Shown here in pieces: positions 11,419 through 29,829 of a stretch of DNA of 64,000 bases. The notes below the pieces were generated by a model that saw only the letters and a list, made by a program, of their open reading frames with translations, was not told the DNA's origin and did not search any database. A program made the position numbers and the translations under genes. Origin of the DNA: an uncultured Chloroflexia bacterium (lineage in GTDB: Bacteria; Chloroflexota; Limnocylindria; QHBO01); the NCBI GenBank assembly GCA_963695195.1, contig CAVOGE010000007.1:408494-472493 (forward strand). Reading direction: 5' to 3'. The first letter of the stretch is position 1. Each line of letters begins with the position of its first letter.

Positions 11419-12177
11419 CTATGGCGCCCCAACGTAAGTCACCGTGACCTTGACGACCCGCAGGTCGATGCCAGCGGAGCCAGTGAGGGAGCAACGGGCT
11501 TGGTAGGCGTAGATGGCATTGTCGATGGGCGGGCCGCTGATCGTGGTGTCGACGAGCGTGGTGTAGCCGGGGGTGGCGGCTCCTCCGGAGCTCGGGGTGG
11601 AGGCCAGACCTGCCACGACGCCGTCTGACGTGACCCGCTGGAGACTGCACAATGTCCCGTAGGTGGCGGTGTTGTCGTACACGTCGCCCGCGAAGGCGGT
11701 GAGGGTGGCGCCATCGGGCAGGTGCACCGCGCAGGTCAGGGAGTCGATGCCAGAGGTCAGGTAGCGCTCGGCGAAGGTGCCGCCCAGGTAGCCGGTCGTG
11801 CTCATTGTGGGTGCCATGTCGTTGCCGGCGCAGCTGTAGTGCTGGGTCTGGTCCTTGCGCGCAAACTGGGACGAATCGATCCCATCGAGCTTGTCGGCGT
11901 TGACCACCGGGGTCTTGCCCGCAGCCAGCGCACCCAGCCGGTTCATGAAGGCCGCCATCTCGGCGCGGGTCACGTTGCGATCCGGACAGTACTTGCCGCC
12001 ACCACAGCCACTGGTCACCCCGGCATTGGTGATGGCCGCGATGTCAGCGTGGAACGGGTTGGAGTTGGGCACATCGCTGTACTGGTGGCTGGCCAACACG
12101 CCGAGCGGGAAGGCGACCAGGGTCAGGCTCAGGGCCAGTACCGCGACCGCACGACGAGACGAGATGGATCGACGCAT
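11419..12177 (-). CDS. secreted SLH-like domain protein (single N-terminal SLH, variable C-terminal domain)
   Basis: Signal peptide, then YSDVPNSNPFHADIAAITNAGVTSGCGGGKYCPDRNVTRAEMAAFMNRLGA, which matches the SLH pattern (F.D..., I..L...GI..G, VTRAEMA, F..RL). Paralog of 14115..14912. Confidence 0.75.
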   Translation of the reverse strand: MRRSISSRRAVAVLALSLTLVAFPLGVLASHQYSDVPNSNPFHADIAAITNAGVTSGCGGGKYCPDRNVTRAEMAAFMNRLGALAAGKTPVVNADKLDGIDSSQFARKDQTQHYSCAGNDMAPTMSTTGYLGGTFAERYLTSGIDSLTCAVHLPDGATLTAFAGDVYDNTATYGTLCSLQRVTSDGVVAGLASTPSSGGAATPGYTTLVDTTISGPPIDNAIYAYQARCSLTGSAGIDLRVVKVTVTYVGAP

Positions 12178-12282
12178 TCGGACACTCCGCAGTCCGGACA
12201 GGCGCGGGCCGTCGTGGCGATCAGCCGATGGTGACGTCAGGCCGGGATCGTGAGCGTCATTGTGGGGCCCGGGTCAACGTGG

Positions 12283-13989
12283 TCATAGCGCCCGATGCAG
12301 GAAGGCCGCCATCTGCTCGCGGGTGACGTTGCCCAGCGGGCAGTACAGGCCCGGCCCACAGCCGGAGGTGATGCCAGCTGCGCGGAAGGCGTTGATATCC
12401 GCTTCGTGGACGCTCGTCTCGTCATCGCTGAAGTAGTCGGTGGCAGTCGGCGGGAGGTCCATGGCGCGCACCAGGAATGAGGCCATCTGGGCACGGGAGA
12501 CGTTCGCCAGCGGGCAATACAGTCCGTCGCCGCAGCCGGTGGTGATCCCGGCGTCCGCCAGCGCGTTGATATCGGCCTCGTGGATGCTGGTCTCGTCATC
12601 GGGGAAGTAGTCGGTAGCGGTGGGTGGCAGCTTCAGGGCGCGCACCAGGAACGAGGCCATCTGGGCGCGGGAGACATTGGCCAGCGGGCAATAGTAGCCC
12701 CCGCCGCAGCCGGTGGTGATGCCGGCGTAGTAGAGCCAGTTGATGTCGTCGAGGAACGGCGAGGTGGTGACGTCGCCGAACGGCGGCGCCACGACGCGGT
12801 AGAGCGCGCCACCCAGGTGCGTGGCGTACAACTCGCCGCCCTCGCTCTCGCCGAACGAGCTGATGTTGAGCGACACCTGGCGGCGCTCTGTCGCCGCACT
12901 GCCACCGACCGGGATGGTCCACAGGCGTCCCGAGCAGTAGTCGGCGAAGACGTACTCGCCGAGCAGGTCCGGCTGCGTCGTTCCGCGGTACACGAAGCCG
13001 CCGGTCACCGAGCATCCGAGGCTGTGGCTGTACTCGGCGATCGGCAGCGTCAGCCCGGACTGGTTGCACGAGCCCGACGCGTAGCAGTGCGCGCCCTCCA
13101 TGACGTTCCAGCCATAGTTACGCCCGCCGGGATCGGCGAGCGCTTCTCGGTCGATCTCCTCCCAGCTGCCCTGGCCGACATCGCCGATCCACAGTGCCCC
13201 GGTCGATCGGTCGAAGCTGAAGCGCCAAGGGTTTCGGAGGCCGGAGGCCCAGATCTCCTCGAGCTCGGGGCCGCCGACGAATGGGTTGGTTGCCGGGATG
13301 GCGTACGTGCCGAAGGTGCCGTCACCGGAGCCGTCGACGTCGATGCGGAGGATCTTGCCCAGCAGCGTGGCCGTCGACTGCCCGTTGTCATCCGGGTCGC
13401 CACTGCCCCCGCCATCGCCGGTGCCGATGTACAGGTAGCTGTCAGAGCGAAAGGCGAGCTGTCCGCCGTTGTGGTTGCTGTTGGCGCTGTGCTCAATCCG
13501 CATGAGGAACTGCTCCGTCGCGCTGCTCGCCGCGGCAAGCCCGATGTTCGCCGTAAAGCGCGAGACGACCAGGTCGCCATCGGCCCTGGTGTAGTACACG
13601 TAGAAGAACCGGTTCGTCGTGAAGTCCGGATGGAAGGCAAGCCCCAGCAGGCCGCGCTCACCGCCCGCCAGGACGCGGTGGGTGATGTCGAGGAACGACC
13701 CGGCCTGCACTTTGCCGTTGAGCACCACCCGGATCCGGCCAGGGCGCTCCACCACGAAGAGGCGACCCGATCCGTCGCCCGCGTTGGTGACCGCGACCGG
13801 CGATGAGAGGCCTGTGGTGACCAGCTGCAGGTCGAGCTGATTCGCCGCCAGCGCCACCGGGGCGGCGGCGGCGATCGCGGGCTGCGGCTCCGGACGGGCT
13901 GCGACCGCCGGTGGCGTGGCCATCACAAGACCCAACAGCGCGAGCCCGATTGCAGCTTGCGAGCCGGGGCGACTGCCAGTGGGTCTCAT
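12283..13989 (-). CDS. PQQ-dependent soluble sugar (glucose/sorbosone) dehydrogenase beta-propeller fused to three C-terminal SLH-like repeats
   Basis: GSDH-family motifs NHNGGQLAFRSDSYLYIGTGDGGGSGDP and GLRNPWRFSFD. Three repeats of ...GITTGCG.G.YCPLANVSRAQMASFLVRAL at the C-terminus. Signal peptide present. Confidence 0.85.
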   Translation of the reverse strand: MRPTGSRPGSQAAIGLALLGLVMATPPAVAARPEPQPAIAAAAPVALAANQLDLQLVTTGLSSPVAVTNAGDGSGRLFVVERPGRIRVVLNGKVQAGSFLDITHRVLAGGERGLLGLAFHPDFTTNRFFYVYYTRADGDLVVSRFTANIGLAAASSATEQFLMRIEHSANSNHNGGQLAFRSDSYLYIGTGDGGGSGDPDDNGQSTATLLGKILRIDVDGSGDGTFGTYAIPATNPFVGGPELEEIWASGLRNPWRFSFDRSTGALWIGDVGQGSWEEIDREALADPGGRNYGWNVMEGAHCYASGSCNQSGLTLPIAEYSHSLGCSVTGGFVYRGTTQPDLLGEYVFADYCSGRLWTIPVGGSAATERRQVSLNISSFGESEGGELYATHLGGALYRVVAPPFGDVTTSPFLDDINWLYYAGITTGCGGGYYCPLANVSRAQMASFLVRALKLPPTATDYFPDDETSIHEADINALADAGITTGCGDGLYCPLANVSRAQMASFLVRAMDLPPTATDYFSDDETSVHEADINAFRAAGITSGCGPGLYCPLGNVTREQMAAFLHRAL

Positions 13990-14114: not shown

Positions 14115-14912
14115 CTAGGGCGCCTCTTTCACCGGCTTGGAGGCATCGTGCGGACTCAGGATGATCAGGCACGACAGGAACGGGGTGTTCCCCGCGCCGT
14201 CAAACGGAATGTACTCGACCATCAGGCTCGACTGGAGGATGTTCAGGTCGGCCCCGATGCTCCCGAACTCGAAGTCGACGGTGTAGGTCGCAGCGTCGCA
14301 CACCCGGTAGCCACCGGACGAGTTGCACGTCGTCTCATCCAGGACGGCGCCGCCGGAGACCCACTGGGTATCGACCCATCGATTCGAGCCCGACACCGCA
14401 CTGTTGTCGACCTCGAGCCAGCAGTTGGCGTCGTCGGTTCCGCCGGACGTTTCGTTATAGACGTACGACGTCCCGGTGATCATCAGGTACCCCCAGCCCG
14501 GGGTCGTGATGGTCGTCGTCAAGCGACCGCTGGAAGCCGCATCGCCGTCAACGGTGGTGGTGTTGTTGCTGGTGTAGGCGAGGCGGTTGAGCTCGTTGGC
14601 ACTCCAGCCATCGACCTTGGTGGCATTGACCACCGGGGTCTTGTTCGACGCCAGCGCACCCAGCCGGTTCATGAAGGCGGCCATCTCGGCGCGGGTCACG
14701 TTGCGATCAGGACAGTAGTTGCCGCCACCACAGCCGGATGTCACGCCGGCATTGGTGATGGCCGTGATGTCCCCGTGGAACGGGTTGCTGTCGGGGACGT
14801 CGCCGTACTGGTGGGTCGCCAGGGCCCCCAGCGGGAAGGCGACCAGGGCGACCACCATCGCGAGCGCGGCCAGGGCGCGCGGTCGGCGGCGGGATGGTCG
14901 GGGATCGGGCAT
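14115..14912 (-). CDS. secreted SLH-like domain protein, paralog of 11419..12177 with a different Ser/Thr/Gly-rich C-terminal domain
   Basis: AAGGAGGA RBS before the ATG at 14912. The first ~95 aa are near-identical to the paralog (YGDVPDSNPFHGDITAITNAGVTSGCGGGNYCPDRNVTRAEMAAFMNRLGALA). The C-terminus is unrelated. Confidence 0.75.
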   Translation of the reverse strand: MPDPRPSRRRPRALAALAMVVALVAFPLGALATHQYGDVPDSNPFHGDITAITNAGVTSGCGGGNYCPDRNVTRAEMAAFMNRLGALASNKTPVVNATKVDGWSANELNRLAYTSNNTTTVDGDAASSGRLTTTITTPGWGYLMITGTSYVYNETSGGTDDANCWLEVDNSAVSGSNRWVDTQWVSGGAVLDETTCNSSGGYRVCDAATYTVDFEFGSIGADLNILQSSLMVEYIPFDGAGNTPFLSCLIILSPHDASKPVKEAP

Positions 14913-14984
14913 CGCTGAAATCTCCTCCTTCGTCCGGGCGGCTTGCTGCTTCGCGCAGCGGAGTTGCATCGTATCGTGGCGGGC

Positions 14985-16403
14985 ATGCACGAAGCACCCT
15001 TCTCGCGCAGGTTCCCTGTCCGTGTACTACCGCGCTCCGCGCTGGTGCTGCTCCTCGCCGCGATGGCCGCCGTCGCCGTCGGCGATCTACTCGAGGTCGT
15101 GGCACGGCTGCGCATGGGCCTGGACGCCAGCGTAGGAGGGGGAGGACTCGCATTGACGCTGGCGGCCGTGCTGGCCTCGGCGCTGCTGATCCTGTGGCTC
15201 ACGCGGCGTCCCGTGCGGGATCGTCTCGACCCCGCCGCCCTGCTGGTTGGCCTGGGGCTGTTGCTTGCATTGAGAGTCGTGGCGGTGCTCCTCGTGGACG
15301 CACCCCTGATCGTGGATTGGCGCCGTTATCACGAGCTGGCAGTCAGCATCTCGCAGGGCGGCGACTGGTTCGCCAGTCGACCGAGCGGCTACGCGCTGCT
15401 AGTCAGCGTCGGTTACCGGGTCTTCGGCCCGAGCCCTGCGGTTGGCGAGTGGCTGAACGTGGGGCTTGGATTGGCGAGCGGCCTGCTCATCTACGCTGTG
15501 GCACTGCGAGCGGCGGGGTCCCGTGCGGCAGGCGTGGCCCTGCTGCTGTACGCCGTCGCCCCAGCCGAGATCCTGATGACCCCCGTCCTGGGCACCGAAA
15601 TCGCATACGGAACCGTCCTCGTCGGCGTCGCCTGGGTGCTCCTGGCCGCTCCACTCTCCGTCGTCCGAGCCGCCGTCGCCGGCGCGGCGCTCGGTGCCTC
15701 CCAGTACGTGCGCGCCACAAGCCAGGTGCTGGCACCCGTTCTGGCGATCGGGGCCGGGTGGCTGGCAGCCCCGGGCCGGCGCCTGCTGATCGGCCTTGCC
15801 TTCGCGGCGTCATTCGCCGCCGTGCTCCCACCCGTGGTCGTGACCAACATGGAGCGCGGCTCGGGTCCTTCTCTCTCGACCTCGTCGTTTTCGGCGTGGC
15901 AGCTGCTGATCGGCACCAACCAGGAGCACGACGGGCGCTTCAACCCGGACGACGTTGCGCTGGTGGGCGGAGAAGCGGCCCTGGGGACGGCGGAGGCCGA
16001 GCGCATCGCGCTGAGAGTTGCCCTGGAGAGGATCGGCGAGGACCCGGTCGGCACGCTCGGCCTGGTTGTGCGCAAGTTCCCCGTCGTGTGGGGTGACGCC
16101 CACTACGGCGCTCGCTGGGCGCTGTACGAAGACCCGGCCCAGGAGCCACAGACGACGCAGGCGTTCGTGCTGCTCAGTCAGCTCGCCTGGGCGGTGGTCG
16201 CGGCACTCGCCGCGGTGGGTGCCTGGCGCGGACGCGCCGGCTCGGCGCAGACAGTGGCGCTGCTGGGTGCGATCCTTGCCGTCTTCGTGCTGGTCCATGC
16301 CCTCGGCGAGGCGAATCCCCGCTACCACGCACCGCTGGTGCCGATCTTCAGCGTGCTGGCCGGTATCGGCGCGGCCAACTTGCTGGCGAACCGGGAGAGT
16401 TAG
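14985..16403 (+). CDS. GT-C membrane glycosyltransferase, PMT/ArnT-like (GT39/GT83 family)
   Basis: Multi-TM protein with the first-loop DxxRYxExA motif (DWRRYHELAVSISQG) typical of polyprenyl-P-sugar-dependent PMT/ArnT transferases. The 3' end overlaps the SLH beta-helix gene by 4 nt. Confidence 0.7.
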   Translation: MHEAPFSRRFPVRVLPRSALVLLLAAMAAVAVGDLLEVVARLRMGLDASVGGGGLALTLAAVLASALLILWLTRRPVRDRLDPAALLVGLGLLLALRVVAVLLVDAPLIVDWRRYHELAVSISQGGDWFASRPSGYALLVSVGYRVFGPSPAVGEWLNVGLGLASGLLIYAVALRAAGSRAAGVALLLYAVAPAEILMTPVLGTEIAYGTVLVGVAWVLLAAPLSVVRAAVAGAALGASQYVRATSQVLAPVLAIGAGWLAAPGRRLLIGLAFAASFAAVLPPVVVTNMERGSGPSLSTSSFSAWQLLIGTNQEHDGRFNPDDVALVGGEAALGTAEAERIALRVALERIGEDPVGTLGLVVRKFPVVWGDAHYGARWALYEDPAQEPQTTQAFVLLSQLAWAVVAALAAVGAWRGRAGSAQTVALLGAILAVFVLVHALGEANPRYHAPLVPIFSVLAGIGAANLLANRES

Positions 16404-18649
16404 CGGAAGGCGCGGTGCAGGAAGGCGGCCATCTGGCCACGGGTGACCAGCCCCTTGGGGCAGTAGGTCGTGGCCGTGCAGCCACTGGTGATGCCCGCCG
16501 CTGCGATGGCGTTGATCGCCGCCTGGTGGATGCTCGCGGAGTCATCGGTGAAGAAGTCAGTGGCCGACGGTGGCAGATGCAATGCCCGGGCGAGGAATGA
16601 GGCCATCTGCTCTCGGGTGACCGATGCGGTCGGGCAGTAGAGGCGCGTCCCGCAGCCGCTGGCGACGCCGGCCGCGGCGACGCGGTTGATATCGGCCTCG
16701 AACATGGATCCGTCGTCGTCATCGAAGGCGTCGGGCGCGCTTCCTGCCAGGCCGAGCGCCCGCGACAGGAATGCTGCCATCTGCCCGCGCGAGACCACCG
16801 CGTCCGGGCAGTATCGGTCTGGCGCGCACCCGCTGGTGATGCCGGCGTCGGCGATCCAGATGATGTCGTCCCGGAAGATCGAGTTGGCGATGTCGATGAA
16901 TCCGTCCGCCCATTTGGCGCCAACCGGGGTCCCACCAACGCCTGCGGAGTACTGGAACGAGTTGCTGCCCACGGTCAGGAAGCCAGGATCGGAGGTGAGC
17001 GTGCTCAGGTAGCCAGGCGGCTGGTAGTTCACGGCGGTGGCGCTCGGGCTGCCGAGCAGGTCCGCGCCGGTGTTGCCGTACAGGCCGCTGTGGTCGAGTG
17101 TCGCCGAGTTGCCGGTCACCAGCCAGACGCCGTAGCCACGGTTGCCGGTGACGAGCGTGTGGTTGATGGTGATGCTCGACGGCGCGACCTGGTAGCCGCC
17201 GATCTTGACCCCTTCGGCCCGGTTCCACCAGATCGTGTCGTGGTCGAGCGTCTTGTTGCTCGTCCCACGATCGACCATGACGCCGATCCCGTTGTCCCAG
17301 TACAGATTCCGTGACGACGTGAGGCGGCCGGCGCCGGAACCGTTGTATCCGTCGAACAGGTACAGGCCGAATCGACGGTTTCCCCAGACCTCGTTGCGCT
17401 CGACCAGCGTGTCCTGCACCGCCGGCATGCTCGATGCCTCCTGGGTGACATGGACCCCGACATCGTTGCCCCAGATGCGGTTTTCGCTCACCGTGGTGGT
17501 GCGCGCGCCATTGGCCACCGTGATCCCCGACGCGTTGTTGTAGGCGCTGCCGGTCGGATTGAAGTCCTGGTCGTGGAGGTCGTTGCGGCAGACGAGGTTG
17601 CCGCTGGTCGTACCCGTGTAACTGCTTCCCGAGACGGGGCCCTGCACCTTGATCCCCTGGAGCCCGTTGTCGTGGACGTCGTTGTCGCAGACGGTGGCGC
17701 CGGTGGTGCCCTCGTCGAGCTTGATCGCCTGGAGCGTGTTGAAGGCAGCCTCGTTGCGCTGGATGAGTGCACCGGTCGCAGGGTCAGCGCCCGAGCCTGT
17801 CTGCTCGCCGGAAACGGCCACCCCCATGTACAGGTTGCCGATCAGCCGGTTGTCGGATGCCTCGCCGTTATCGACCCCCTTGGCGAAGGCGATCCCATTG
17901 GCCGAGTGCCGGACCTCGAAGCCGCGCACCGCGACGTTATTGACGGGGTAGCGGCCGTCGAAGTAGAAGGCGTTGCGCACGATGACATCGATCCGATGGC
18001 TTCCCGGATTCGCGGCGGGCACGGTCGAGAGATACAGCTGCTTGGCCGCCGAATCCCACCAGTAGCCGCCGAGGCCGCTCGCCGCCCGGGAATTCAGCGC
18101 GGACAGGCTGGTCTGCTCCCAGAGCCAGGTCGTCTCGTCCTGGAAGACGGCCGTCTTGATCGAGCCGCTCGAGGTCGGGAAGCCGAACGGCGCAGTCGTC
18201 CAGGGCGTCTTCCAGACACCAGCCGTTCCGGTCGAGGACCAGCTCTTGCCGGGTGCCGGGGCGGCATCGGCGCCGGACACGACCGGCCGCGTGTATCCGC
18301 TGCTGGTGCCGTTGTAGCCGTATGCCTCGAATGCAATCGGCGCACTCACGCTGCCATACCGGTCCCAACTGGGCGGCACGGGTCGCTCGCGGTAGACGTA
18401 GTCGGCATAGCCGACAACCTGGATCGTCCAGCCGGCGGCAGACCCCGCCGGCAGGCTGCTGGCGGCTTTGCTGATCGTCTTGAAGGCCGATCCCAGGCTC
18501 GTCCCGGCGTCGCTGTCACTGCCGGTCTTGCCGTCCACGTAGAAGGTGCCGCCGGCAGCTGCGGCCGCGGGGGGCGGTGCAACCGCAAGCAGCGTCGCCA
18601 TCAGCGCGACGGCGGAGAGCAGGGAGACACAACGGCGAACGGCAGCCAT
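16400..18649 (-). CDS. secreted right-handed parallel beta-helix (pectate-lyase-like, PbH1 repeats) protein with three C-terminal SLH-like repeats
   Basis: Signal peptide. Repeated N.(V/I)W.N..G... beta-helix rungs (NRIWGNDVGVHV, NEVWGNRRFGLYL, NLYWDNGIGVMV, TIWWNRAEGVKI). C-terminal 3x ...AGITSGC....YCP..VTR.QMA.FL.RA. Confidence 0.8.
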   Translation of the reverse strand: MAAVRRCVSLLSAVALMATLLAVAPPPAAAAAGGTFYVDGKTGSDSDAGTSLGSAFKTISKAASSLPAGSAAGWTIQVVGYADYVYRERPVPPSWDRYGSVSAPIAFEAYGYNGTSSGYTRPVVSGADAAPAPGKSWSSTGTAGVWKTPWTTAPFGFPTSSGSIKTAVFQDETTWLWEQTSLSALNSRAASGLGGYWWDSAAKQLYLSTVPAANPGSHRIDVIVRNAFYFDGRYPVNNVAVRGFEVRHSANGIAFAKGVDNGEASDNRLIGNLYMGVAVSGEQTGSGADPATGALIQRNEAAFNTLQAIKLDEGTTGATVCDNDVHDNGLQGIKVQGPVSGSSYTGTTSGNLVCRNDLHDQDFNPTGSAYNNASGITVANGARTTTVSENRIWGNDVGVHVTQEASSMPAVQDTLVERNEVWGNRRFGLYLFDGYNGSGAGRLTSSRNLYWDNGIGVMVDRGTSNKTLDHDTIWWNRAEGVKIGGYQVAPSSITINHTLVTGNRGYGVWLVTGNSATLDHSGLYGNTGADLLGSPSATAVNYQPPGYLSTLTSDPGFLTVGSNSFQYSAGVGGTPVGAKWADGFIDIANSIFRDDIIWIADAGITSGCAPDRYCPDAVVSRGQMAAFLSRALGLAGSAPDAFDDDDGSMFEADINRVAAAGVASGCGTRLYCPTASVTREQMASFLARALHLPPSATDFFTDDSASIHQAAINAIAAAGITSGCTATTYCPKGLVTRGQMAAFLHRAFR

Positions 18650-19918: not shown

Positions 19919-19988
19919 GGGATCTCGAGTATAAGCGCGCCCATGGACCACGCCCTGCTGTGCGCGGCGCAGGGCATACTTCCGGGCG

Positions 19989-21110: not shown

Positions 21111-22471
21111 ACGAGCCGGCTGAGGGCGATGCACGGGACGCCGAACGCGCCGAGGTCCGCTCGTTCGGGGGTGCGGTCGTCCAGCTGACGGTGGTCCGCA
21201 TCGGTTCGGTGGTTGCCGGATTTCTGGCGAGCGTGCTCGCCGCACGCCTGATCGGTGCCGACGGTCTCGGGCTTGCCGGATCGGCGTTCACCATTGCCAC
21301 CGCCGGTGCGTTGCTGTCCAGCGGCGGACTGAACATCGCGGCCATCTACTTCCTCGGCCGCCGGCCCGGCGAACAGGGGCAGGTCGTCGCACGCACGCTC
21401 ACGCTTGGTGTGGGGGCAGCGGTGCTGGCGGTCCTGGTCGTGCTGGGCGCAGGGCTGGCGTTGCGCACGGTCGTCCTCGGCGAAGCGGACGGCACCGTAT
21501 TGCTGGCTGCCGCCGCACTGGCGGCCACGATCCTGACGTTCGAGCTGATCGGTGGGCTCCTGCTCGGCCTTCATCGTCGCACCGCGTACATCGTGGTCCA
21601 GGCGACCGAGGCGATCGGGTCACTGGCGCTGACCGCATTACTGCTGCTCATCGTGGATCGCTCCGCGGCGAGTTATCTCGCCGCGGCGGCACTCGGCTAC
21701 GCCGGCGGCGCACTGATCGCCTGGGTGGCGATACGCCGTCACGTGGGGCCCATCCGTCCTGACTTCGCGCCCGCCTTCGCGCGGGAGGCGCTGGGCATGG
21801 GTTTGCGCGGACAGGTTGGCAACATCCTCCAGTACCTCAGCCTGCGGCTCGATCTCGTGCTCGTCGCCGCCCTCCTCGACCTGCGAGCGGCGGGGATCTA
21901 CTTCGTCGCGGTGCGCGTCAGCGAGGTGGTGACCCAGGTCGCAACCTCGGCGTCCGCATTCCTCTTCCCGCAGGTGGCGGCGCAGACCGAGCGCCGCTCG
22001 ACGCGCGTCACCGAACAGATCACGCGCCTGACGCTGGTGACGGTGGTGGCCGGCGGACTCATCCTCGCGGCCGTGGCTGAGCCGCTGCTGCGTCTCGCCT
22101 TCGGCGATGAGTTCGCGACCGGCGCCGACGCCGTGCGGATTACGCTGCTCGCCATGCTGCCGTTGACACTCACCCGTCTGATCGCCGGCGATCTGAAGGG
22201 CCGCGGCCGACCCGGACTCGTTTCGTGGGCCGCCTTCGTCGGCCTGGTCGCCACCGTGTCGCTCGACCTCGTCCTCATCCCACGGCTGGGAATCGTCGGC
22301 GCGGCGCTTGCCTCCCTGCTCAGCTACGCGGCCGGCGCCGCGTTCATGCTCGGTGCCTACCGCCGCCTGACCGGTTCACGGATCGGCGCCCTGGTGCCGC
22401 GCCTCGGCGACCTGCGGGTGCTGGTCGATCTGGCCTGGGCCGGCGGGCGTCGTCGAGGTGACTCCCGTTGA
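21104..22471 (+). CDS. oligosaccharide flippase (Wzx/MOP superfamily; CsaA-like)
   Basis: 455 aa, about 12-14 TM helices, polysaccharide-biosynthesis-protein topology. Overlaps wecB by 7 nt and csaB by 4 nt. Confidence 0.8.
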   Translation: MLNEPAEGDARDAERAEVRSFGGAVVQLTVVRIGSVVAGFLASVLAARLIGADGLGLAGSAFTIATAGALLSSGGLNIAAIYFLGRRPGEQGQVVARTLTLGVGAAVLAVLVVLGAGLALRTVVLGEADGTVLLAAAALAATILTFELIGGLLLGLHRRTAYIVVQATEAIGSLALTALLLLIVDRSAASYLAAAALGYAGGALIAWVAIRRHVGPIRPDFAPAFAREALGMGLRGQVGNILQYLSLRLDLVLVAALLDLRAAGIYFVAVRVSEVVTQVATSASAFLFPQVAAQTERRSTRVTEQITRLTLVTVVAGGLILAAVAEPLLRLAFGDEFATGADAVRITLLAMLPLTLTRLIAGDLKGRGRPGLVSWAAFVGLVATVSLDLVLIPRLGIVGAALASLLSYAAGAAFMLGAYRRLTGSRIGALVPRLGDLRVLVDLAWAGGRRRGDSR

Positions 22472-23535
22472 ACGGGCGGGTGCGAGCTGTCGCGCTCGGC
22501 TACCAGGGTTTCGGCAACGTCGGCGACGAGGCCATCCTGGCGGGCATCGAGGAGCTCCTCAGCGACAGCCACGTGGAGGTCGTGGCGGTGGTGGGCGGTC
22601 ATGAGCAGATCCCGGCGTACCCTGCGGCTCGCCGCATCGCGACGCGCCGGATGCGCCCGAACCTCGCTTCACTCCGCGCGCTCAGTCGTGCCCGACTCCT
22701 GCTGGTGAGCGGTGGCGGGCTGCTGCACGACCACTGGGTCACCGTGGTGCCGACCTATCTCGCCTGGATGCTCCTGGCCCGCCTGACGGGGACACGTGTC
22801 GTATGGGTCGGCGTGGGCGTCGGGCCGCTCGACCGACCGATACTGAGGCGCATGGCCGGCTGGGCGCTCCGGCTTGCCGCATGCGTGACGGTGCGAGATC
22901 CCGAATCGGCACTGCTCGTGGCCAGGATCGCACCACGCGTGAAGGTGACCGTCGTCCCGGATCCTGCGCTGCTCATGGCCCCGCCTGCGGCTCGACCGAG
23001 GAGCGGGATCGGCTTCGTGGTGCGCGGGCCGACTCCCGGGCGCGACGGCGAAAGCGACGAGATGATTGGTGGCCTCGCCAGGGCCGCAGCGAACGCGGGA
23101 AAGGGCGATGTCCGTCTGCTCACGTTTGGCGGCCCGCGGGATCGCGCCTTCGCCGACGCGGTTCGAGGACTGGCGGCGCAGGACGGCAGCACCCTGCCGA
23201 TCGAGGAGCTCGGCCCTGACCCGCGCCAGGCGCTGGAGGTGCTGGCTGGGCTGCAAGCGGTCGTAACCGTGCGACTGCATGGTCTCCTGCTGGCGGCGCT
23301 CGCGGGCACCCCGGCGGTCCCGATCGCCTATGACGACAAGGTCGCGAGCATGGCCCGCCACCTGGGCCTCCACGAAGCCTGCCAGCCAGTCACGGGACTC
23401 ACCGGGCACGGCATCACTGCCGCGCTTGCCTCCGTCCAGACCGAAAAGCAACGAGAACTGGTGGCAGGTCGCTTGATCGAGATCCGATCGAACGCTGCCT
23501 TGCTCCGGCGCCTGATCGAGGCGGCAGCCCAGTGA
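22468..23535 (+). CDS. csaB: polysaccharide pyruvyl transferase (PF04230; CsaB family)
   Basis: N-terminus LGYQGFGNVGDEAILAGI matches the CsaB start (GYYGF.N.GDEAIL). Size is 355 aa. Sits directly after wecB and the flippase, as in the Bacillus csaAB arrangement. Confidence 0.8.
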   Translation: MNGRVRAVALGYQGFGNVGDEAILAGIEELLSDSHVEVVAVVGGHEQIPAYPAARRIATRRMRPNLASLRALSRARLLLVSGGGLLHDHWVTVVPTYLAWMLLARLTGTRVVWVGVGVGPLDRPILRRMAGWALRLAACVTVRDPESALLVARIAPRVKVTVVPDPALLMAPPAARPRSGIGFVVRGPTPGRDGESDEMIGGLARAAANAGKGDVRLLTFGGPRDRAFADAVRGLAAQDGSTLPIEELGPDPRQALEVLAGLQAVVTVRLHGLLLAALAGTPAVPIAYDDKVASMARHLGLHEACQPVTGLTGHGITAALASVQTEKQRELVAGRLIEIRSNAALLRRLIEAAAQ

Positions 23536-24704
23536 CGGACGCATCCGCGACACTGCCCACCCGTGTGGACGTGCTGCTGGCGGTCGGCTATGACCCGGAC
23601 GTTCGCGTGCGACGCATCACGCAGGCACTCGCCGGCGCCGGGTGCCGGGTGAGGATCCTGGCCTGGGATCGTGACGGCACGCGCCCCACGGCCGAGGGCG
23701 ATGGGCCAGTCAGTGTCAGGAGGGTTTCAGTGAGAAGTCGCTGGGGTCGCGGCTGGACGCAGGTCTTCGCCCTTCCCCGGCTCTTCATCCGCTACCTCGC
23801 CGCCGTGCGCCGCCGCCGACCGGACGTGCTGCACGCCGTCGACCTGCCGATGCTCGTTGCGGCCGTGCTGATCGCCCCCTTCGCCGGGCGTCCGCGAATC
23901 GTGTATGACGCCTTCGAGGTGTATCGGTTGATGGTCAGCCACCGGCTGCCGACCCCGATCCTGTGGGCGATCGGCCTGCTCGAGCGGCGGCTGCCGCGCC
24001 GGGCTCAGCTGGTGGTTACTCCGGGCGAGCGCCGACGCGCGTACTTCGCCAGGCTCGGCGTCAGTTCGATCTCGATCCCCAACTGGGTCGATCCGCCCCC
24101 AGTCCGACCGGATCGCGCCGCAGCCCGCGGTGATCTGCAGATCCCGCCAGACACCTTCTGCGTGGCCTACGCGGGCGCGCTCAACGAGGCCCGTGACGTC
24201 GACGCCCTGCTGCGCCACGCTCGGCGCAGGCCGGACCACCTGGTGATCATCGCCGGGACCGGGGAAGACGAGCCGCGTCTCCGGACCATGGCTGCGGACC
24301 TGCCGAACGTGCGCCTGGCCGGCTGGCTGGCCGACCCGTCGGGCCTGCTTGCCGCGGCGGATGCGATGTACTACGCGCTGCGGCCAGACCACCCGTATGC
24401 GGCACTGGCGGCGCCGAACAACCTGTACGTCGCCATCGCGCACCAGGTCCCGCTGGCGTATCGCGCGCAGGGTGAACTCGCCGAGGTCGGCGAGCAGCAC
24501 GAGATCGGGGTGCCATTCAGCGACGACGAGTCACTTGATGCCGCCCTCGACCAGCTGGCCGACCCGCAGGTCAATGGTCGCGTCCGCGGCAGCCTGGCAG
24601 AGCTCGGCGAGAGCTACCGCTGGGAGATCGCCGCCGAGCGGCTGGTCCGCGTGTACCCGATGAACGGGAGCGCCGCGAGCAGCGCCACGCCGAAGGGACC
24701 GTAG
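23532..24704 (+). CDS. glycosyltransferase family 4
   Basis: ATGA overlap with csaB. GT-B architecture with a C-terminal E-x7-E-like region. Confidence 0.7.
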   Translation: MTDASATLPTRVDVLLAVGYDPDVRVRRITQALAGAGCRVRILAWDRDGTRPTAEGDGPVSVRRVSVRSRWGRGWTQVFALPRLFIRYLAAVRRRRPDVLHAVDLPMLVAAVLIAPFAGRPRIVYDAFEVYRLMVSHRLPTPILWAIGLLERRLPRRAQLVVTPGERRRAYFARLGVSSISIPNWVDPPPVRPDRAAARGDLQIPPDTFCVAYAGALNEARDVDALLRHARRRPDHLVIIAGTGEDEPRLRTMAADLPNVRLAGWLADPSGLLAAADAMYYALRPDHPYAALAAPNNLYVAIAHQVPLAYRAQGELAEVGEQHEIGVPFSDDESLDAALDQLADPQVNGRVRGSLAELGESYRWEIAAERLVRVYPMNGSAASSATPKGP

Positions 24705-26101: not shown

Positions 26102-26108
26102 CTCCGAC

Positions 26109-27266
26109 TCACGAGCCGAACTGCGGCGGGCTTGGCTCCCAGTCGTGATACGTGCCATCTGAGCCCCTCGAGTAGAACCGGATTCCATAGCGTCGGAGCT
26201 CGTTCGCGAGACGCGCTGAGAGGTCGTCGGCGACTCCAGCGACACGGCGACGAGCCGGATCGAAGATCGTCCAGCCGTCGGCCACCGGCGCGCCCACGGC
26301 CTCCATGATCGCCAAGACGCGGCGCCCACCCGGATCGGTTTCCACGGCGGCCTCCGCCGAAGACCCTGCCGCCAGGTAGACGGCACCGGATGTTGCGAGC
26401 GACACCAGCCCCTCACGACTCACCGGCACGGCATCGACGCCGAGGACCTGGGCGTACGCGGACAGGAACGACTCGAAGAACGTCGCTCGGGCCTCGTCAG
26501 AGATCGGCCGTGGATAGGCGTTCTCGCGGATGACCCGGGCCGGAGAACCGGCGGCCAGGGCGCCATCGGGGATATCGGAAGTGACCAGCGAGTTGACTCC
26601 GATGACGCAGTTGCGCCCGATGCGCACGCCCGGGTTGATGGTTGCCCCTGGCACCCAGCTGAAGTCGCCGATCTCGACACCGGCAAAGGCAGCCGGGAAG
26701 CCCTGGAGCCGCGAGGGGTAGGCGCCATGGGTGTAGATCGCGGTTCGCGTCCCCAGGCCGACCTCGTGCCCGATCACCACCGGACGTGCGGTGTTGATCA
26801 GGGCATGGGTACCGATGTGCAGGAAGTGGCCCGCGTCAAGGCGCGAGGCGTTTTCGAATGCGGATCCGCCGCCGATCTTGGCCTGCGGCAACATCCACAG
26901 CTCCTGGCCGATGTGCACCTGCCGGCCCGAGATCTCGCCGCCCTCGCCGACCGTGCCAGAGGCGCCGATTCGCAGCTCGTCGAGCACGCGCATGGTCGTG
27001 TACCGCATCACCCGGACATCGGTGCCGATGCTGATCCCGCCGCCCTCGATCCGTACCGACCGGCCGATCAGCGCTCGGTCCCCAATCGTCAGCCGGCTCG
27101 CACTGATCCTGACCCCGGGCATGGTCCGGAAGTCGTCGGCATCGGAGAATCCGATCCGCGCGCCGGAGCCGATCTCGATCTCGTCGGCCTCGATGACCAC
27201 GTCGTCCCCGAAAACCACATCGGCAGCGATGCTCACCCGGGTTGCACGAATGGTCGGCTCAGCCAT
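26109..27266 (-). CDS. left-handed beta-helix (hexapeptide-repeat) acyl/acetyltransferase-like protein with C-terminal extension
   Basis: Repeated [LIV]G...[LIV]G hexapeptide runs (IGSGARIG, IGDRALIGRSVRI, IGTDVRV, VGLGTRTAIY, RIGRNCVIGVNSLV). Confidence 0.65.
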   Translation of the reverse strand: MAEPTIRATRVSIAADVVFGDDVVIEADEIEIGSGARIGFSDADDFRTMPGVRISASRLTIGDRALIGRSVRIEGGGISIGTDVRVMRYTTMRVLDELRIGASGTVGEGGEISGRQVHIGQELWMLPQAKIGGGSAFENASRLDAGHFLHIGTHALINTARPVVIGHEVGLGTRTAIYTHGAYPSRLQGFPAAFAGVEIGDFSWVPGATINPGVRIGRNCVIGVNSLVTSDIPDGALAAGSPARVIRENAYPRPISDEARATFFESFLSAYAQVLGVDAVPVSREGLVSLATSGAVYLAAGSSAEAAVETDPGGRRVLAIMEAVGAPVADGWTIFDPARRRVAGVADDLSARLANELRRYGIRFYSRGSDGTYHDWEPSPPQFGS

Positions 27267-27286
27267 GGGTCTTCTCCGCGAGCTGG

Positions 27287-27931
27287 CTACATGACAACGG
27301 TCCGGATCACCTCGAAGGCTTCAGCCGCCGGCTGGTCGATCTGCAGGCCGCGAACGGCGGCGAGCGAGGCGATGAAGTCAGGCTGCAGGTACGGGCGAAA
27401 TGCCTGCGATCGATAGGCAGCCGCGTGACGGATCTTCACTTCCATGTGTCGCTCCTCGAGGCGGATGAAGCAGGCGTGCTGGAACGAGATGGTGTTCATC
27501 GGCAGTTCGTAACCGAGCATGGTGGCGTGCTTGAATGCCCGAAGCCCTTCGCGGGCCACGACTTCATGGTCCTGGTGCATGTCCGACATGGCCGGCACGA
27601 AGACGATCTGGGGGTCGATGCGCCGGCGCAGGGTCACGAGCTCCTCGAGGATCTCCTGCCGCCGGGACGGGAAGTGACGCACCTTGAAGTCGAAGAGGGT
27701 GAAGCGCTCCTCGGGGATGCCGAGCACGGCGATGGCATCGCGCACCTCGCGCTTCAGGACGTCGCGGTCCCAACCCTCCGGAACCGACTCCTCGCAGGGG
27801 CTGAAGCAGGCGTAATGGACCTCGGCGCCCGCCTCGACCAGACGGGCGATGGTGCCGGCACAGCCGAACTCGTCGTCGGTGTGGGCGCCGAGTACGAGCG
27901 CCCGGCCGGTGAGATCGATCAGCTGCGCCAC
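27287..27931 (-). CDS. PIG-L/LmbE family N-acetylglucosaminyl deacetylase
   Basis: ALVLGAHTDDEFGCAG and DMHQDHEVVAREG are the zinc-binding signatures of the PIG-L family. Confidence 0.85.
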   Translation of the reverse strand: MAQLIDLTGRALVLGAHTDDEFGCAGTIARLVEAGAEVHYACFSPCEESVPEGWDRDVLKREVRDAIAVLGIPEERFTLFDFKVRHFPSRRQEILEELVTLRRRIDPQIVFVPAMSDMHQDHEVVAREGLRAFKHATMLGYELPMNTISFQHACFIRLEERHMEVKIRHAAAYRSQAFRPYLQPDFIASLAAVRGLQIDQPAAEAFEVIRTVVM

Positions 27932-28003: not shown

Positions 28004-28303
28004 TCAGGTCAGGAGCGCGATCACCGTCGTGGCAGCAACGTAGACCAGCGCACCGCCGGCGGTGACAAGCATCCGCAGGCTCCATGACATGCGGGTGTCG
28101 GAGAGGAGCAGATACGACAGCGGACCGACCAGGGGCAGGAACATGACCGCGGCGCCCCACAGCAACCGGTCTCGCTCGGTCATCTCCTCGCGGCGCATCA
28201 GGTCCCACAGCGACAGGACCACCCACGTGGCGTACAGCACGACCGGGTAGGTGGACGTGTAGAAGCTGGACAGGGCGGTGACCGCCTGCTCAAGCAGCGC
28301 CAT
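28004..28303 (-). CDS. small membrane protein with PLD-nuclease N-terminal-like (PLDc_N) motif
   Basis: WVVLSLWDLMRREEMTERDRLLWGAAVMFLPLVGPLSYLLL resembles PF13396 (W..W.D...W....P..G...Y). Confidence 0.5.
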   Translation of the reverse strand: MALLEQAVTALSSFYTSTYPVVLYATWVVLSLWDLMRREEMTERDRLLWGAAVMFLPLVGPLSYLLLSDTRMSWSLRMLVTAGGALVYVAATTVIALLT

Positions 28304-28422
28304 GCCGGTCGTTCCCTCCTATTGCGTGCGAGCTGGCGGCCCGGGCCCGGACAGTAGCACGCCTCCGCGGCGCGTCTTCGGGTTGATCGGCGATCCCAGA
28401 CTGCCTAGAGTGGCAGCACACG

Positions 28423-29829
28423 ATGATCCGACGACACCTGATGACGCTGCGCCTCGCCCTGATGCTCGGCGACGGCGTCAGTGCGGCAGCGGTGTTCCTG
28501 ATCATCTCATTCCTCCGCTTCGGTGACGGGGCGTGGCTGGCGTTCTCCAGGCGCGGCATCGATCTCCGCCTTGCCGCCATCGTGTTCGGTATCGGCTGGG
28601 TGGTCACCCTGTGGTACCACGGGCTCTATCGATTGCGTGTCCGTCTGCAACTCCGGACCGAAGCGAAGGACATCGCGCGTTCGACGGTCATCTTCGCCGC
28701 GATCACGCTCGCTTCCCTCTTCGTGATCCACCGGGACGACGTCAGCCGGCTCTTCCTGCTCGCGATCTTCGTGGTCCAGCCGCTGGTCACCTTTGTTGAG
28801 CGCAGCCTCCTGCGCTTCGCATTCAGCAGCCTGCGTCGACGCGGCCACAACTTGCGCTACATGCTGGTGGTCGGCAGCGGACGGCTGGCGCAGGACTTCG
28901 CGGATCTGGTCGAGGCCCATCCCGGCCTGGGCATCCGCGTGATCGGCCATCTCGCGGTCCCTGGCGAGGGGAGCCCGGTGGTGACACGCCCTATCCTGGG
29001 CAACGTCGCGGAGATCGAGGATATCTTCCACGGCCGCGTGGTCGACGAGGTGGCCGCGTGTCTCGCGCCGGCGTCGGCCGGCCACCTGGAATCGATCGCC
29101 GCACTGGCCGCCGAGGAGGGCAAGACGGTTCGGATTCCGGTCGACCCGCACGCCGGCGCGATCCTGAACGCACGTGAGGAAGAGTTCGAGGGCATGCTCG
29201 TCCGGTCCCTCGTTCACGACGGACATCGCGAGGTGGGGCTCGTGATCAAGCGCGTGATCGACATCGTGGCAGCGGCTGCGGGGCTCATCGTGCTCAGCCC
29301 GCTGCTGCTCGTCACCGCCCTGGTGATTCGGCTGCGCGATGGCTCGCCAGTTCTCTTCCGGCAGACGCGCGTGGGGCTGCATGGACGGCCGTTTACCATC
29401 ATCAAGTTCCGCTCCATGGCTCCCGATGCCGAGCGGCGACTGCATGAGGTGGCGCACCTCAATGAGCGCCGCGGCGCGGCGTTCAAGGCCACCAATGATC
29501 CGCGCATCAGCCCGCTGGGCCGGATCCTGCGCAAGACGAGCCTCGACGAGCTGCCGCAGCTGTGGAACGTGCTCCGCGGGGAGATGAGCCTGGTCGGGCC
29601 GCGGCCGCCGCTCCCGTCCGAGGTGCTCGAGTACGACATCTGGCACCGCCGCCGACTGAGCATGAAGCCCGGCATCACCGGTCTCTGGCAGGTCGAATCG
29701 CGCCACGAGGCGAGCTTTGACCGCTGGGTCGAACTCGATCTCAGCTACATCGACCGGTGGACGCTCTGGCTCGACCTGAGCATCCTGCTCCGCACCATGC
29801 CGAGCGTGCTGATGGCCCGCGGGCGCTGA
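28423..29829 (+). CDS. undecaprenyl-phosphate hexose-1-phosphate transferase (WbaP/CpsE-type priming glycosyltransferase)
   Basis: N-terminal TM domain, central Rossmann-like domain, and the conserved C-terminal sugar-transferase domain (RPFTIIKFRSM...[21 protein letters not shown]...GITGLWQV). Confidence 0.9.
   Translation: MIRRHLMTLRLALMLGDGVSAAAVFLIISFLRFGDGAWLAFSRRGIDLRLAAIVFGIGWVVTLWYHGLYRLRVRLQLRTEAKDIARSTVIFAAITLASLFVIHRDDVSRLFLLAIFVVQPLVTFVERSLLRFAFSSLRRRGHNLRYMLVVGSGRLAQDFADLVEAHPGLGIRVIGHLAVPGEGSPVVTRPILGNVAEIEDIFHGRVVDEVAACLAPASAGHLESIAALAAEEGKTVRIPVDPHAGAILNAREEEFEGMLVRSLVHDGHREVGLVIKRVIDIVAAAAGLIVLSPLLLVTALVIRLRDGSPVLFRQTRVGLHGRPFTIIKFRSMAPDAERRLHEVAHLNERRGAAFKATNDPRISPLGRILRKTSLDELPQLWNVLRGEMSLVGPRPPLPSEVLEYDIWHRRRLSMKPGITGLWQVESRHEASFDRWVELDLSYIDRWTLWLDLSILLRTMPSVLMARGR

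Follow-up and report, generated by a model that had tools for sequence, protein, structure and literature searches.

The question raised by this locus is whether four SLH proteins and the glycan genes next to them form one system, in which the glycan genes supply the polymer that the SLH domains bind. An earlier note on this DNA had described such a locus. We identified the genes of the window, i.e. the whole 64-kb stretch analysed, from GC3-filtered open reading frames (ORFs) and searches with Pfam and NCBIfam profiles, and every gene named in that note was found at or near its reported place. The closest homologues of the window proteins came from Limnocylindria MAGs, and the priming transferase of the window falls in one cluster, at >=90% identity, with a protein assigned to a Chloroflexota bacterium. 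The host is an uncultured member of the Chloroflexota, probably of class Limnocylindria/Ellin6529. This lineage has no cultured isolate.

All four proteins described as secreted SLH proteins scored above the PF00395 gathering score (20.8), with eight repeats in total, and had signal-peptide-like N-termini as read from the translations. The two larger ones each end in an SLH triplet: a 568-aa protein (12283..13989, minus strand) with a glucose/sorbosone-dehydrogenase (GSDH) beta-propeller (PF07995, 149 bits; PF00395, 64.9 bits), and a 749-aa right-handed beta-helix protein (16400..18649, minus strand; PF13229, 57.2 bits; PF00395, 54.2 bits), the three repeats of which carry a Cys pair. The other two have a single repeat. 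In the 252-aa protein (11419..12177, minus strand; PF00395, 29.9 bits), a signal peptide is followed by an N-terminal Cys-pair SLH domain and, after a VVNADKLDG linker, by a jelly-roll beta-sandwich at the C-terminus; in the AF2 model this C-terminal domain had a pLDDT of about 97, with weak CBM6-like matches only, and the SLH part was of low confidence as a monomer. At least four paralogues of this protein are encoded on the same 1.87-Mb contig. The second small protein (14115..14990, minus strand; PF00395, 26.9 bits) is also its paralogue; this gene probably begins at 14912 and encodes 265 aa instead of the listed 291 aa. Its orthologue in a 94%-identical relative (L082) is called at 265 aa, the listed window ORF being overextended, and the related locus L014 has three paralogues of it. 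Located amid the SLH genes is a gene for a multi-pass membrane protein, weakly GT-C/PMT_2-like (14943..16403, plus strand; PF13231, 16.9 bits, below the gathering score), which is kept in L082 (446-aa call).

The SLH fold and its ligand-binding residues are conserved in the window proteins. A failure against PF00395 or an unrelated fold had been considered for the repeats; all four proteins passed the profile and an SLH fold was modelled. The triplet of the GSDH protein was predicted with a pLDDT of 96.3 and matched the SLH domains of Bacillus anthracis Sap (3PYW) with a TM score of 0.86 and an rmsd of 2.0 Å, and those of Paenibacillus alvei SpaA bound to 4,6-Pyr-ManNAc with TM scores of 0.71-0.76; in sequence, it also matched Sap SLH (6BT4, E 1e-14). 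In SpaA, the pyruvate ketal is bound by Arg43 and Gly29 (PMC6081394). Both residues are kept in all eight window repeats and subfamily-wide (Arg43 in 616 and Gly29 in 615 of 617 repeats), and the position of the stacking Trp13 of SpaA is occupied by Phe or His in the window. The motif G-[IV]-x-x-G-C-x5-C-P was present in each of the eight repeats, and no further copies were found elsewhere in the 64-kb window. The Cys pair, which flanks the loop directly after Gly29, is thus real; however, it is not distinctive, as had been proposed, since it marks a large subfamily in several phyla and was seen in 356 of 370 repeats among the best 120 of 1,661 database homologues.

Between the SLH genes and wecB lies, as previously described, a divergently oriented glycosyltransferase gene, GT4a (18722..~20047, minus strand; PF13579, PF13692, PF00534). 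Its product is 441 aa as called in L082, the listed window ORF being overextended, and has an orthologue with 52% identity in L001. The plus-strand operon consists of genes for 1) WecB/MnaA, a non-hydrolysing UDP-GlcNAc 2-epimerase for UDP-ManNAc supply (19989..21110; TIGR00236, 377.8 bits, cutoff 210), 2) a Wzx-type flippase (21104..22471; PF01943, 47 bits; PF13440, 40.6 bits), which has the place of CsaA in B. anthracis and overlaps both flanking genes with its start and stop, 3) a CsaB-like ketal-pyruvyl transferase (22468..23535; PF04230, 104.5 bits), and 4) GT4b (23532..24704; Pfam GT4 domains), whose sole PDB sequence match was a weak one to PimB'. Because start and stop codons overlap at all three junctions (GTGCTGA, TTGA and GTGA), the translational coupling that had been claimed for this run is plausible. 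The genes said to continue the run are present, but those for Wzy, LbH and PIG-L are on the minus strand, in an operon of their own that runs towards GT4b. It begins with a small PLDc_N membrane protein (28004..28303; PF13396, 30.7 bits; kept in L082 and L014), followed by a PIG-L family de-N-acetylase (27287..27931; PF02585, 71.8 bits), an LbH (left-handed beta-helix, hexapeptide) acetyltransferase (26109..27266; PF00132, with WcaF/WbbJ-like NCBIfam matches) and a Wzy/O-antigen-ligase-like (Wzy_C) polymerase (24614..~26158; PF04932, 30.5 bits, just below the gathering score of 31.7). The 3' ends of the last gene and GT4b overlap by 91 bp, and its orthologue in L082 (514 aa) matches Wzy_C. Beyond this operon is a large WbaP/WcaJ-type polyprenyl-phosphate sugar-1-phosphate priming transferase (28423..29829, plus strand; PF02397, 234 bits; PF13727; TIGR03025, 388.6 bits, cutoff 295.6).

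For the pyruvyl transferase, CsaB (TIGR03609) was the only strong family match: it gave 161.6 bits and covered positions 2-291 of the 301-position profile, as compared with 21-24 bits for WcaK models. This score falls below the curated equivalog cutoff (213.1 bits), and homologues from Bacillota, Thermotogae and Obscuribacterales scored 254-302 bits. In the tree, the enzyme was placed in a divergent Limnocylindria clade, on a long separate branch sister to canonical CsaB, with WcaK as a distant outgroup; clustering with exopolysaccharide enzymes was therefore not seen in this comparison against WcaK only. H271 of the invariant RLHG motif aligned with the Pvg1p His in 5AX7, a PEP-binding residue (PMC10435577). 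The earlier name CsaB is thus right as to family and too firm for a sub-cutoff member of a divergent clade, and the low score together with the long branch suggests that the acceptor specificity could differ.

Conservation of the neighbourhood was assessed in 21 related clade loci, with SLH genes counted within 10 kb. In all 21, wecB was found within 3 kb of csaB, and GT4b orthologues (50-60% identity) were beside csaB in nearly all. SLH genes lay within 10 kb of csaB in 15 of the 21, usually including the GSDH-SLH orthologue, so that the loss of synteny considered earlier was not observed. In at least 12 related loci, csaB is accompanied by the GSDH-SLH orthologue, with CsaB identities to the window down to about 40%; the SLH-csaB association therefore represents conserved synteny rather than chance. 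In L001, L003 and L018, the csaB cassette has the WbaP-type priming transferase as a neighbour. The cassettes of L018, L083 and L084 include a WecG/TagA-family gene that adjoins csaB; in the latter two it is located between wzx and csaB (TIGR00696, 136 bits). GT26 was not found in most clade loci; csaB-GT26 adjacency was observed in 28 of 62 loci from other phyla.

The earlier note had called the system complete. This is overstated: profile scans revealed no TagA/WecG (GT26) ManNAc transferase and Pfam scans no TagO homologue in the 64-kb window, and two candidate LCP (LytR-CpsA-Psr) ligases (41781..43154, minus strand; PF03816, 117 bits; TIGR00350, 112.8 bits; and 45827..47437, plus strand; PF03816, 88.6 bits; TIGR00350, 74.6 bits) lie outside 11419-29829, 12-18 kb downstream. 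The window also contains a second Wzx, a second Wzy-like protein, a second priming transferase, a second wecB and rml-like genes; the assignment of the priming transferase, Wzy and LCP proteins to this polymer is uncertain because of these further genes.

Taken together, it is probable that the locus is a biosynthesis and modification cluster for an SCWP-type glycopolymer, joined to four SLH proteins that dock on the polymer. The core coupling of ligand synthesis and anchoring is supported in silico by the SLH fold, the CsaB match, the synteny and the TagA/WecG genes of relatives, even though "complete" and "CsaB" were overstated. In the proposed route, WecB would provide UDP-ManNAc, the WbaP-type transferase would prime undecaprenyl phosphate, and the lipid-linked repeat would be assembled by GT4a and GT4b together with a ManNAc transferase that the window scans did not reveal. 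At the cytoplasmic face, the CsaB-like enzyme would transfer pyruvate from PEP to ManNAc as a 4,6-ketal. The unit would then be flipped by Wzx and polymerised by the Wzy-like protein, and the polymer would be de-N-acetylated and acetylated by the PIG-L and LbH enzymes and attached to peptidoglycan by an LCP ligase. We infer that the dehydrogenase and beta-helix proteins bind pyruvyl-ManNAc with their SLH triplets, via Arg43, Gly29 and an aromatic residue, and that the two small proteins, which have one SLH domain each, probably do so after trimerisation.

The cassette might instead make a pyruvylated exopolysaccharide or capsule, with the SLH genes as mere neighbours in an envelope island. The sub-cutoff CsaB score, the best family of the priming enzyme (the 'EPS_sugtrans' model TIGR03025) and the other glycan genes of the window would fit such an origin, as would the six of 21 clade loci with no SLH gene in the available DNA, although two of these six are contigs of less than 8 kb. 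We regard it as unlikely, given that the transferase scored 24 bits against WcaK-type and 162 bits against CsaB models, that the GSDH-SLH orthologue accompanies csaB so widely, and that all eight SLH repeats of the window lie inside 7.2 kb adjoining the operon.

A change of ligand, to another linkage or pyruvylated sugar or to modified peptidoglycan as for OmpM of Negativicutes, could be reflected in the Cys-pair subtype and the divergent, GT26-less cassette. Phe or His replaces Trp13; the two Cys that flank the post-Gly29 loop come and go as a pair (both are present in 600 repeats, neither in 16 and just one Cys in a single repeat); and the constant partner of csaB belongs to the GT4 family, whose enzymes are retaining. 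Such a change nevertheless seems quite improbable, as Arg43 and Gly29 are essentially invariant, csaB is linked to wecB in every locus of the clade and the operon still includes GT26 in three of them. Moreover, Cys-pair SLH genes of Anaerolineales and Acidobacteriota adjoin csaB homologues outside the divergent clade, so the Cys pair is not tied to the divergent enzyme. An outer-membrane tether, like OmpM/SlpA in Thermus and Deinococcus, in cyanobacteria and in diderm Firmicutes, is very improbable. OmpM-like proteins with SLH domains have been reported from Chloroflexi (PMC9388160), and in diderm Terrabacteria CsaB/SLH serves as the tether (bioRxiv 10.1101/2021.05.31.446380), but a beta-barrel porin is absent from all four SLH proteins, whose remaining domains are a beta-propeller, a beta-helix and a small jelly-roll; window scans revealed no Bam or LPS genes; and a monoderm envelope has been inferred for Chloroflexi, freshwater members included (PMC6169038).

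The earlier suggestion that the locus could document the SLH/pyruvyl-polymer mechanism in a new phylum is overstated. Beyond Firmicutes, SLH/CsaB is already known from experiments in Deinococcus-Thermus and Cyanobacteria and from bioinformatic work across Terrabacteria (bioRxiv 10.1101/2021.05.31.446380; PMC6801904), in addition to the Chloroflexi OmpM-like proteins mentioned above. One survey reported SLH/CsaB to be lost in Chloroflexi, and the Limnocylindria-like locus is therefore a modest correction.

The csaB-tagA-tagO-slhA-spaA cluster of P. alvei (with MnaA) likewise combines a CsaB-family gene with SLH genes and depends on UDP-ManNAc (PMC6081394, PMC6801904); it shares with the window the SLH-triplet fold and the Arg43/Gly29 elements, and with L083/L084 a TagA-family gene beside csaB. 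The window differs in that no TagA or TagO was found and priming is of WbaP type instead of TagO; in having two GT4, Wzx/Wzy, PIG-L and LbH with a divergent CsaB (162 versus a cutoff of 213 bits); in the Cys pair and Phe/His of its SLH repeats; and in SLH proteins that are enzymes or small lectin-like proteins rather than an identified S-layer protein. B. anthracis csaA-csaB resembles it in the Wzx-like gene directly upstream of csaB, the adjacent SLH genes and a proposed Wzx/Wzy-dependent route with polymer acetylation and de-N-acetylation (PMC6801904; PMC6081394). Sap SLH was also the best structural match of the window triplet, whereas the window comes from another phylum, has wecB within the operon and lacks a Sap/EA1-like lattice protein. 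Polymer acetylation in B. anthracis is by PatA/PatB, as opposed to the LbH type of the window.

CsaB/SlpA of Thermus thermophilus and CsaB/OmpM of cyanobacteria exemplify an SLH-recognised pyruvylated polymer outside Firmicutes (bioRxiv 10.1101/2021.05.31.446380). Their tether proteins must oligomerise because each polypeptide has one SLH domain, similar to what is suggested for the two small SLH proteins here, but the window has neither the coiled-coil-porin architecture nor a sign of an outer membrane. WcaK of colanic acid and other ketal-pyruvyl transferases of exopolysaccharides share with the window enzyme the PF04230 family and the Wzx/Wzy and WbaP/WcaJ-type pathway logic, whereas the neighbours in the window are SLH genes and wecB, not colanic-acid-type genes. 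The system is a well-known one, and the locus shows it in a somewhat varied form in an uncultured, Limnocylindria-like member of the Chloroflexota.

Since the G+C content of the window was about 69% throughout, genes were picked by third-position GC, and the ORFs so selected were identified by Pfam and NCBIfam scans. The gene content described in the earlier note was confirmed, with minor corrections of strand and gene boundaries, and the same gene order was seen in independent gene calls of a 94%-identical relative (L082). Pfam matches identified five proteins in a minus-strand block extending from 11419 to about 20047, namely four SLH proteins and a GT4 glycosyltransferase (GT4a, 18722–20047), which lies at the end of the block and diverges from wecB. 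The SLH proteins are 1) a 252-aa protein with one SLH repeat (11419–12177; PF00395, 29.9 bits), 2) a 568-aa glucose/sorbosone dehydrogenase (GSDH) beta-propeller with three C-terminal SLH repeats (12283–13989; 64.9 bits), 3) a second single-SLH protein (ORF 14115–14990, likely start 14912; 26.9 bits), and 4) a right-handed beta-helix protein of 749 aa with a C-terminal SLH triplet (16400–18649; 54.2 bits). A plus-strand gene for a membrane protein, weakly GT-C/PMT_2-like (14943–16403), is interleaved among them. The plus-strand operon consists of wecB (TIGR00236, 377.8 bits; cutoff 210), wzx (PF01943, 47 bits, and PF13440), a pyruvyl transferase gene (PF04230; 22468–23535) and a second GT4 gene (GT4b, 23532–24704), and all three of its junctions are start/stop overlaps (GTGCTGA, TTGA and GTGA). 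Converging on it is one minus-strand operon for a PLDc_N small membrane protein, a PIG-L protein, an LbH acetyltransferase and a Wzy_C-like protein, beyond which a large WbaP/WcaJ-type priming transferase is encoded on the plus strand (TIGR03025, 388.6 bits). The Wzy_C-like protein was marginal (30.5 bits vs a gathering score of 31.7), and its L082 orthologue matches Wzy_C. A Wzx/Wzy-pathway set of flippase, polymerase and polyprenyl-phosphate priming transferase is thus present in the window. It was also noticed that the 3′ ends of GT4b and the Wzy-like gene share 91 bp (24614–24704), an overlap that recurs in the L082 calls (12153–12243).

All four SLH proteins exceeded the PF00395 gathering score of 20.8, and their translations begin with signal-peptide-like N-termini. 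The C-terminal SLH triplet of the GSDH protein (12286–12807) is similar in sequence to the SLH domain of Bacillus anthracis Sap (6BT4, E 1.2e-14), and its AlphaFold2 model, built with a 55-sequence alignment, had a pLDDT of 96.3. Foldseek comparison of the model with the PDB gave Sap SLH 3PYW as the best match (TM 0.86, rmsd 2.0 Å), with TM values of 0.71–0.76 for the Paenibacillus alvei SpaA-SLH/4,6-Pyr-beta-ManNAc complexes and 0.70–0.79 for 6BT4 and the 6CW*/7SV* entries; the three-pronged spindle fold of the SLH trimer is accordingly predicted for the window triplet. Together, the Pfam scores, the Sap match and the model bear out the view that the repeats are true SLH domains. The residues known to bind the SLH ligand are Arg43 of the TRAE motif, Gly29 of the GIIxG motif and Trp13 (PMC6081394). 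Arg43 (in the motifs TRAE, SRAQ, TREQ, SRGQ and TRGQ) and Gly29 were each found in 8 of 8 window repeats, and among 617 non-redundant repeats of the subtype they were kept in 616 and 615, respectively. At the position of the stacking Trp13, all eight window repeats have Phe or His; across the subfamily it is F in 276, H in 255, Y in 37 and W in 19.

Each of the eight window repeats also contains the pattern G-C-x5-C-P, with a Cys directly after Gly29 and a second one six residues on. In the set of 617 repeats, both Cys were present in 600, neither in 16 and one only in a single repeat; such joint gain and loss is the pattern expected of a disulfide. The Cys pair had been proposed as a distinctive variant of this lineage, a proposal that we do not uphold, as it occurs in 356 of 370 repeats from the 120 best of 1,661 database homologues and in Anaerolineales and Acidobacteriota loci. 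Partner domains among those homologues include CAP, lysyl oxidase, GH18, GH25, M23 and others, and some of the homologues are from named Actinomycetota. In the loci L027, L029, L061–L063 and L080, from Anaerolineales, Thermoanaerobaculia, Bryobacterales and further Acidobacteriota, Cys-pair repeats lie a few kb from CsaB homologues, and the combination is therefore seen in Acidobacteriota as well as Chloroflexota. In a published survey, SLH/CsaB are described as practically absent from Gracilicutes.

The two small SLH proteins of the window (11419–12177 and 14115–14912) belong to a multigene family of secreted proteins of about 250 aa. The 1.87 Mb contig that carries the window encodes at least four others (P0257, P0266, P0311 and P0322), and three members lie beside csaB in the related locus L014. 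In each protein, a single SLH repeat is joined through a conserved KTPVVNADKLDG linker to a Cys-rich jelly-roll, in which four to five Cys are conserved. A phage tail-fibre origin of the VVNADKLDG linker was tested by a PHROGs scan of the small SLH proteins, in which no match was significant. One distant relative of the family has a phage tail-collar domain (PF07484). In the 252-aa protein, the lone SLH repeat was modelled as a monomer with low confidence, and the C-terminal domain of about 140 aa was modelled as a jelly-roll beta-sandwich (pLDDT about 97). We assigned no function to this domain because its Foldseek matches were generic CBM6/jelly-roll structures only (TM about 0.6 on target). 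Since SLH binding sites are assembled from three domains (PMC6081394), the single-SLH proteins probably trimerise.

The pyruvyl transferase had TIGR03609 (CsaB) as its sole strong match (161.6 bits, E 2.6e-47, profile positions 2–291 of 301), a score that is nevertheless under the curated cutoff of 213.1, and WcaK models gave 24.3 and 20.8 bits. For calibration, TIGR03609 scores of other homologues were used: those from Bacillota, Limnochordia, Thermotogae, Obscuribacterales and Zipacnadia scored 254–302, one from Actinomycetota 206, one from Nevskia 198, and the clade mate L002 scored 151.9. Placement relative to EPS enzymes was examined in a rough NJ tree of 81 sequences rooted on Escherichia coli WcaK, the sole EPS comparator. 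In it the window enzyme and those of the related loci L001–L018 (L017 dropped) formed one clade, sister to the other CsaB-like sequences, a placement that may be a long-branch effect. The motifs GNxGDEAIL, GGGxLxD, VRD, RLHG and YDxK are invariant in the clade, as are R143, R186, R269, H271 and K291 in a within-clade alignment of 29 sequences; in P. alvei CsaB, the catalytic or PEP-binding residues are R148, R207, H308 and K328 (PMC10435577). H271, in RLHG, aligned with the RLH motif of Pvg1p (5AX7), the His of which binds PEP (PMC10435577); this was the only PDB match of the enzyme by phmmer and, being insignificant (E 0.57), was used for that motif alone. No match was found among PLSDB plasmids by tblastn. 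Of the CsaB identity claimed for this enzyme, what stands is that CsaB is the only strong model and that WcaK falls outside as a distant outgroup, whereas formal membership at the curated cutoff does not. By sequence, the enzyme is closer to CsaB than to a WcaK-type EPS pyruvyl transferase, and on present evidence it appears to behave as a CsaB though below the membership cutoff.

By a pattern scan, 80 loci were retrieved from the GTDB species representatives. The 18 closest, with CsaB 40–52% identical, all come from MAGs of Chloroflexota, of which many bear the name Candidatus Limnocylindria. Together with three further contigs, these 18 were taken as the clade loci (n = 21). In the window, the four SLH genes all lie upstream of the csaB operon, no more than 8.6 kb from the wecB start. 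SLH genes were found within 10 kb in 15 of the 21 clade loci, usually including an orthologue of the GSDH-SLH gene, and two of the six loci without them are contigs of less than 8 kb; co-location of csaB with SLH genes is thus borne out. The proposed UDP-ManNAc supply likewise held, the wecB score being well over the TIGR00236 cutoff and wecB lying within 3 kb of csaB in all 21 loci. An orthologue of GT4b was also present in every one, nearly always adjacent. In L083 and L084, two of the clade loci, the operon reads wecB-wzx-GT26-csaB-GT4b-ppa, and the GT26 is of the WecG/TagA family (PF03808; TIGR00696, 136 bits vs a cutoff of 69), which includes the beta-ManNAc transferase building the CsaB acceptor in P. 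alvei (PMC6801904). A GT26 gene was also seen beside csaB in L018, and one directly adjoins csaB in 28 of 62 loci of other phyla. This adjacency links ManNAc to the CsaB family as a whole and especially to this clade. Loci with such csaB-GT26 pairs include L020, L031, L032, L038, L043, L048, L055, L060, L065, L068 and L076, among others, and the csaB-tagA pair is widely kept in Bacillota, cyanobacterial sister groups, Actinomycetota and candidate phyla. PDB sequence searches, made for clues to the donor sugars, yielded no more than a weak PimB′ match for GT4b and none for GT4a.

Genes for envelope glycans extend through much of the window. The region 31543–37859 encodes a GT4, a second Wzx, another GT4, an epimerase, an RmlA-like nucleotidyltransferase and a dehydratase, and 47438–51053 encodes a GT4, a clear second Wzy_C protein (51.8 bits) and a second, shorter Bac_transf priming enzyme. 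Two LCP (LytR-CpsA-Psr) ligases are encoded at 41781–43154 and 45827–47437, outside the range 11419–29829; between their genes (41781–47437) lie those for a GGDEF diguanylate cyclase and a DUF3048 protein. On the minus strand, a nucleotide-sugar dehydrogenase gene lies next to a GT2 gene (55822–57869), its best specific matches being UDP-ManNAc dehydrogenases, below cutoffs, and a 955-aa ORF (58909–61776) combines a second wecB (TIGR00236, 270 bits, above cutoff) with a DegT/PseC-like aminotransferase. In this ORF, an unassigned N-terminal extension of about 230 aa is present, and the epimerase comes first with the aminotransferase in frame and no stop between; the arrangement reflects a gene fusion or else an artefact of assembly. 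The second wecB and the UDP-ManNAc-dehydrogenase-like gene suggest a separate pathway for a ManNAcA-containing glycan. Rather than one locus, the window represents an envelope-glycan island. The LCP enzymes are candidate ligases that could plausibly attach the polymer to peptidoglycan; since the pathways of the window are duplicated, we infer the assignment of the priming transferase, Wzy and LCP to the pyruvylated polymer. Also in the window are genes for an F420H2-dependent quinone reductase (913–1407), an enzyme of the PEP-mutase/isocitrate-lyase superfamily (1848–2681) and a second PMT_2-like GT-C membrane glycosyltransferase (3911–5077; 27 bits, just above gathering).

Taken together, these in silico data make it likely that the locus joins synthesis of a pyruvylated polymer to the SLH proteins encoded beside it. 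Chloroflexi have been listed among the phyla with OmpM-like SLH proteins (PMC9388160), and an outer-membrane tether of the OmpM/SlpA type, in which an N-terminal SLH domain is followed by a coiled coil and a C-terminal beta-barrel porin, was considered; it was rejected because the four SLH proteins have no porin domain, their partner domains being a GSDH propeller, a beta-helix and a jelly-roll. Another possibility, which we regard as unlikely, is that the Limnocylindria cassette of divergent CsaB, wecB and GT4, usually without a TagA-type transferase, makes a pyruvylated epitope that differs in its chemistry from the 4,6-Pyr-beta-ManNAc of Firmicutes. The Cys-pair SLH subtype, with Phe/His for Trp13 and a putative disulfide staple, would then have co-adapted to read it. 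If true, it would be a second SLH-ligand 'dialect' in abundant uncultured soil and freshwater Chloroflexota, possibly also in Actinomycetota and Acidobacteriota.

Among named homologues, those nearest to the SLH proteins and to CsaB come from Candidatus Limnocylindria, and the G+C content of the window agrees with the 68.9% reported for the class (PMC10608941). A protein that falls into one cluster with the window's priming transferase at ≥90% identity is labelled Chloroflexota bacterium. The Ellin6529 or 'Eulabeiota' lineage has no extant isolate (bioRxiv 10.1101/2021.08.23.457424); the locus offers a first handle, with testable modules, on the cell envelope of an uncultured lineage. The SLH/pyruvyl-SCWP system is one of the main non-covalent routes among Terrabacteria for fixing proteins or outer membranes to the wall, and its distribution informs reconstructions of the diderm-to-monoderm transition. 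Dependence of SLH on CsaB is established in Firmicutes, Thermus and cyanobacteria, and their co-occurrence has been mapped across Terrabacteria (bioRxiv 10.1101/2021.05.31.446380; PMC6801904); a phylum-wide survey reported loss of both in the monoderm Chloroflexi/CPR/Dormibacteraeota clade (bioRxiv 10.1101/2021.05.31.446380). The window and 20 related loci constitute a conserved SLH/CsaB locus in Limnocylindria/Ellin6529, and CsaB homologues with adjacent SLH repeats occur in Anaerolineales too; these refine that picture and correct the absence reported for the Chloroflexi supergroup, which is the chief value of the finding. No description of SLH/CsaB in Limnocylindria was found in the literature searched, and related homologues from MAGs and metagenomes are already labelled SLH-domain proteins or CsaB in databases. 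Places where current curated models (TIGR03609) under-call the system are marked by the CsaB clade below the cutoff and by the SLH subfamily with the Cys pair.

In P. alvei, the system involves TagO priming and a TagA/WecG-family beta-ManNAc transferase, whereas the window locus has neither: within the 64 kb, no GT26 was detected by tblastn (E ≤ 1e-3) or as PF03808 in the Pfam scans, and these scans detected no TagO-type gene (PF00953). The earlier note had called the system complete, a term that is not justified because both genes are missing from the 64 kb, the LCP ligases moreover lying outside the range it gave (11419–29829). Compared with the known systems, the locus varies in 1) its sub-threshold, clade-specific CsaB, 2) a cassette that centres on wecB-csaB-GT4, is usually without GT26 and has WbaP-type priming, and 3) the Cys-pair SLH subfamily, while the remainder of it is an expected instance of known biology.
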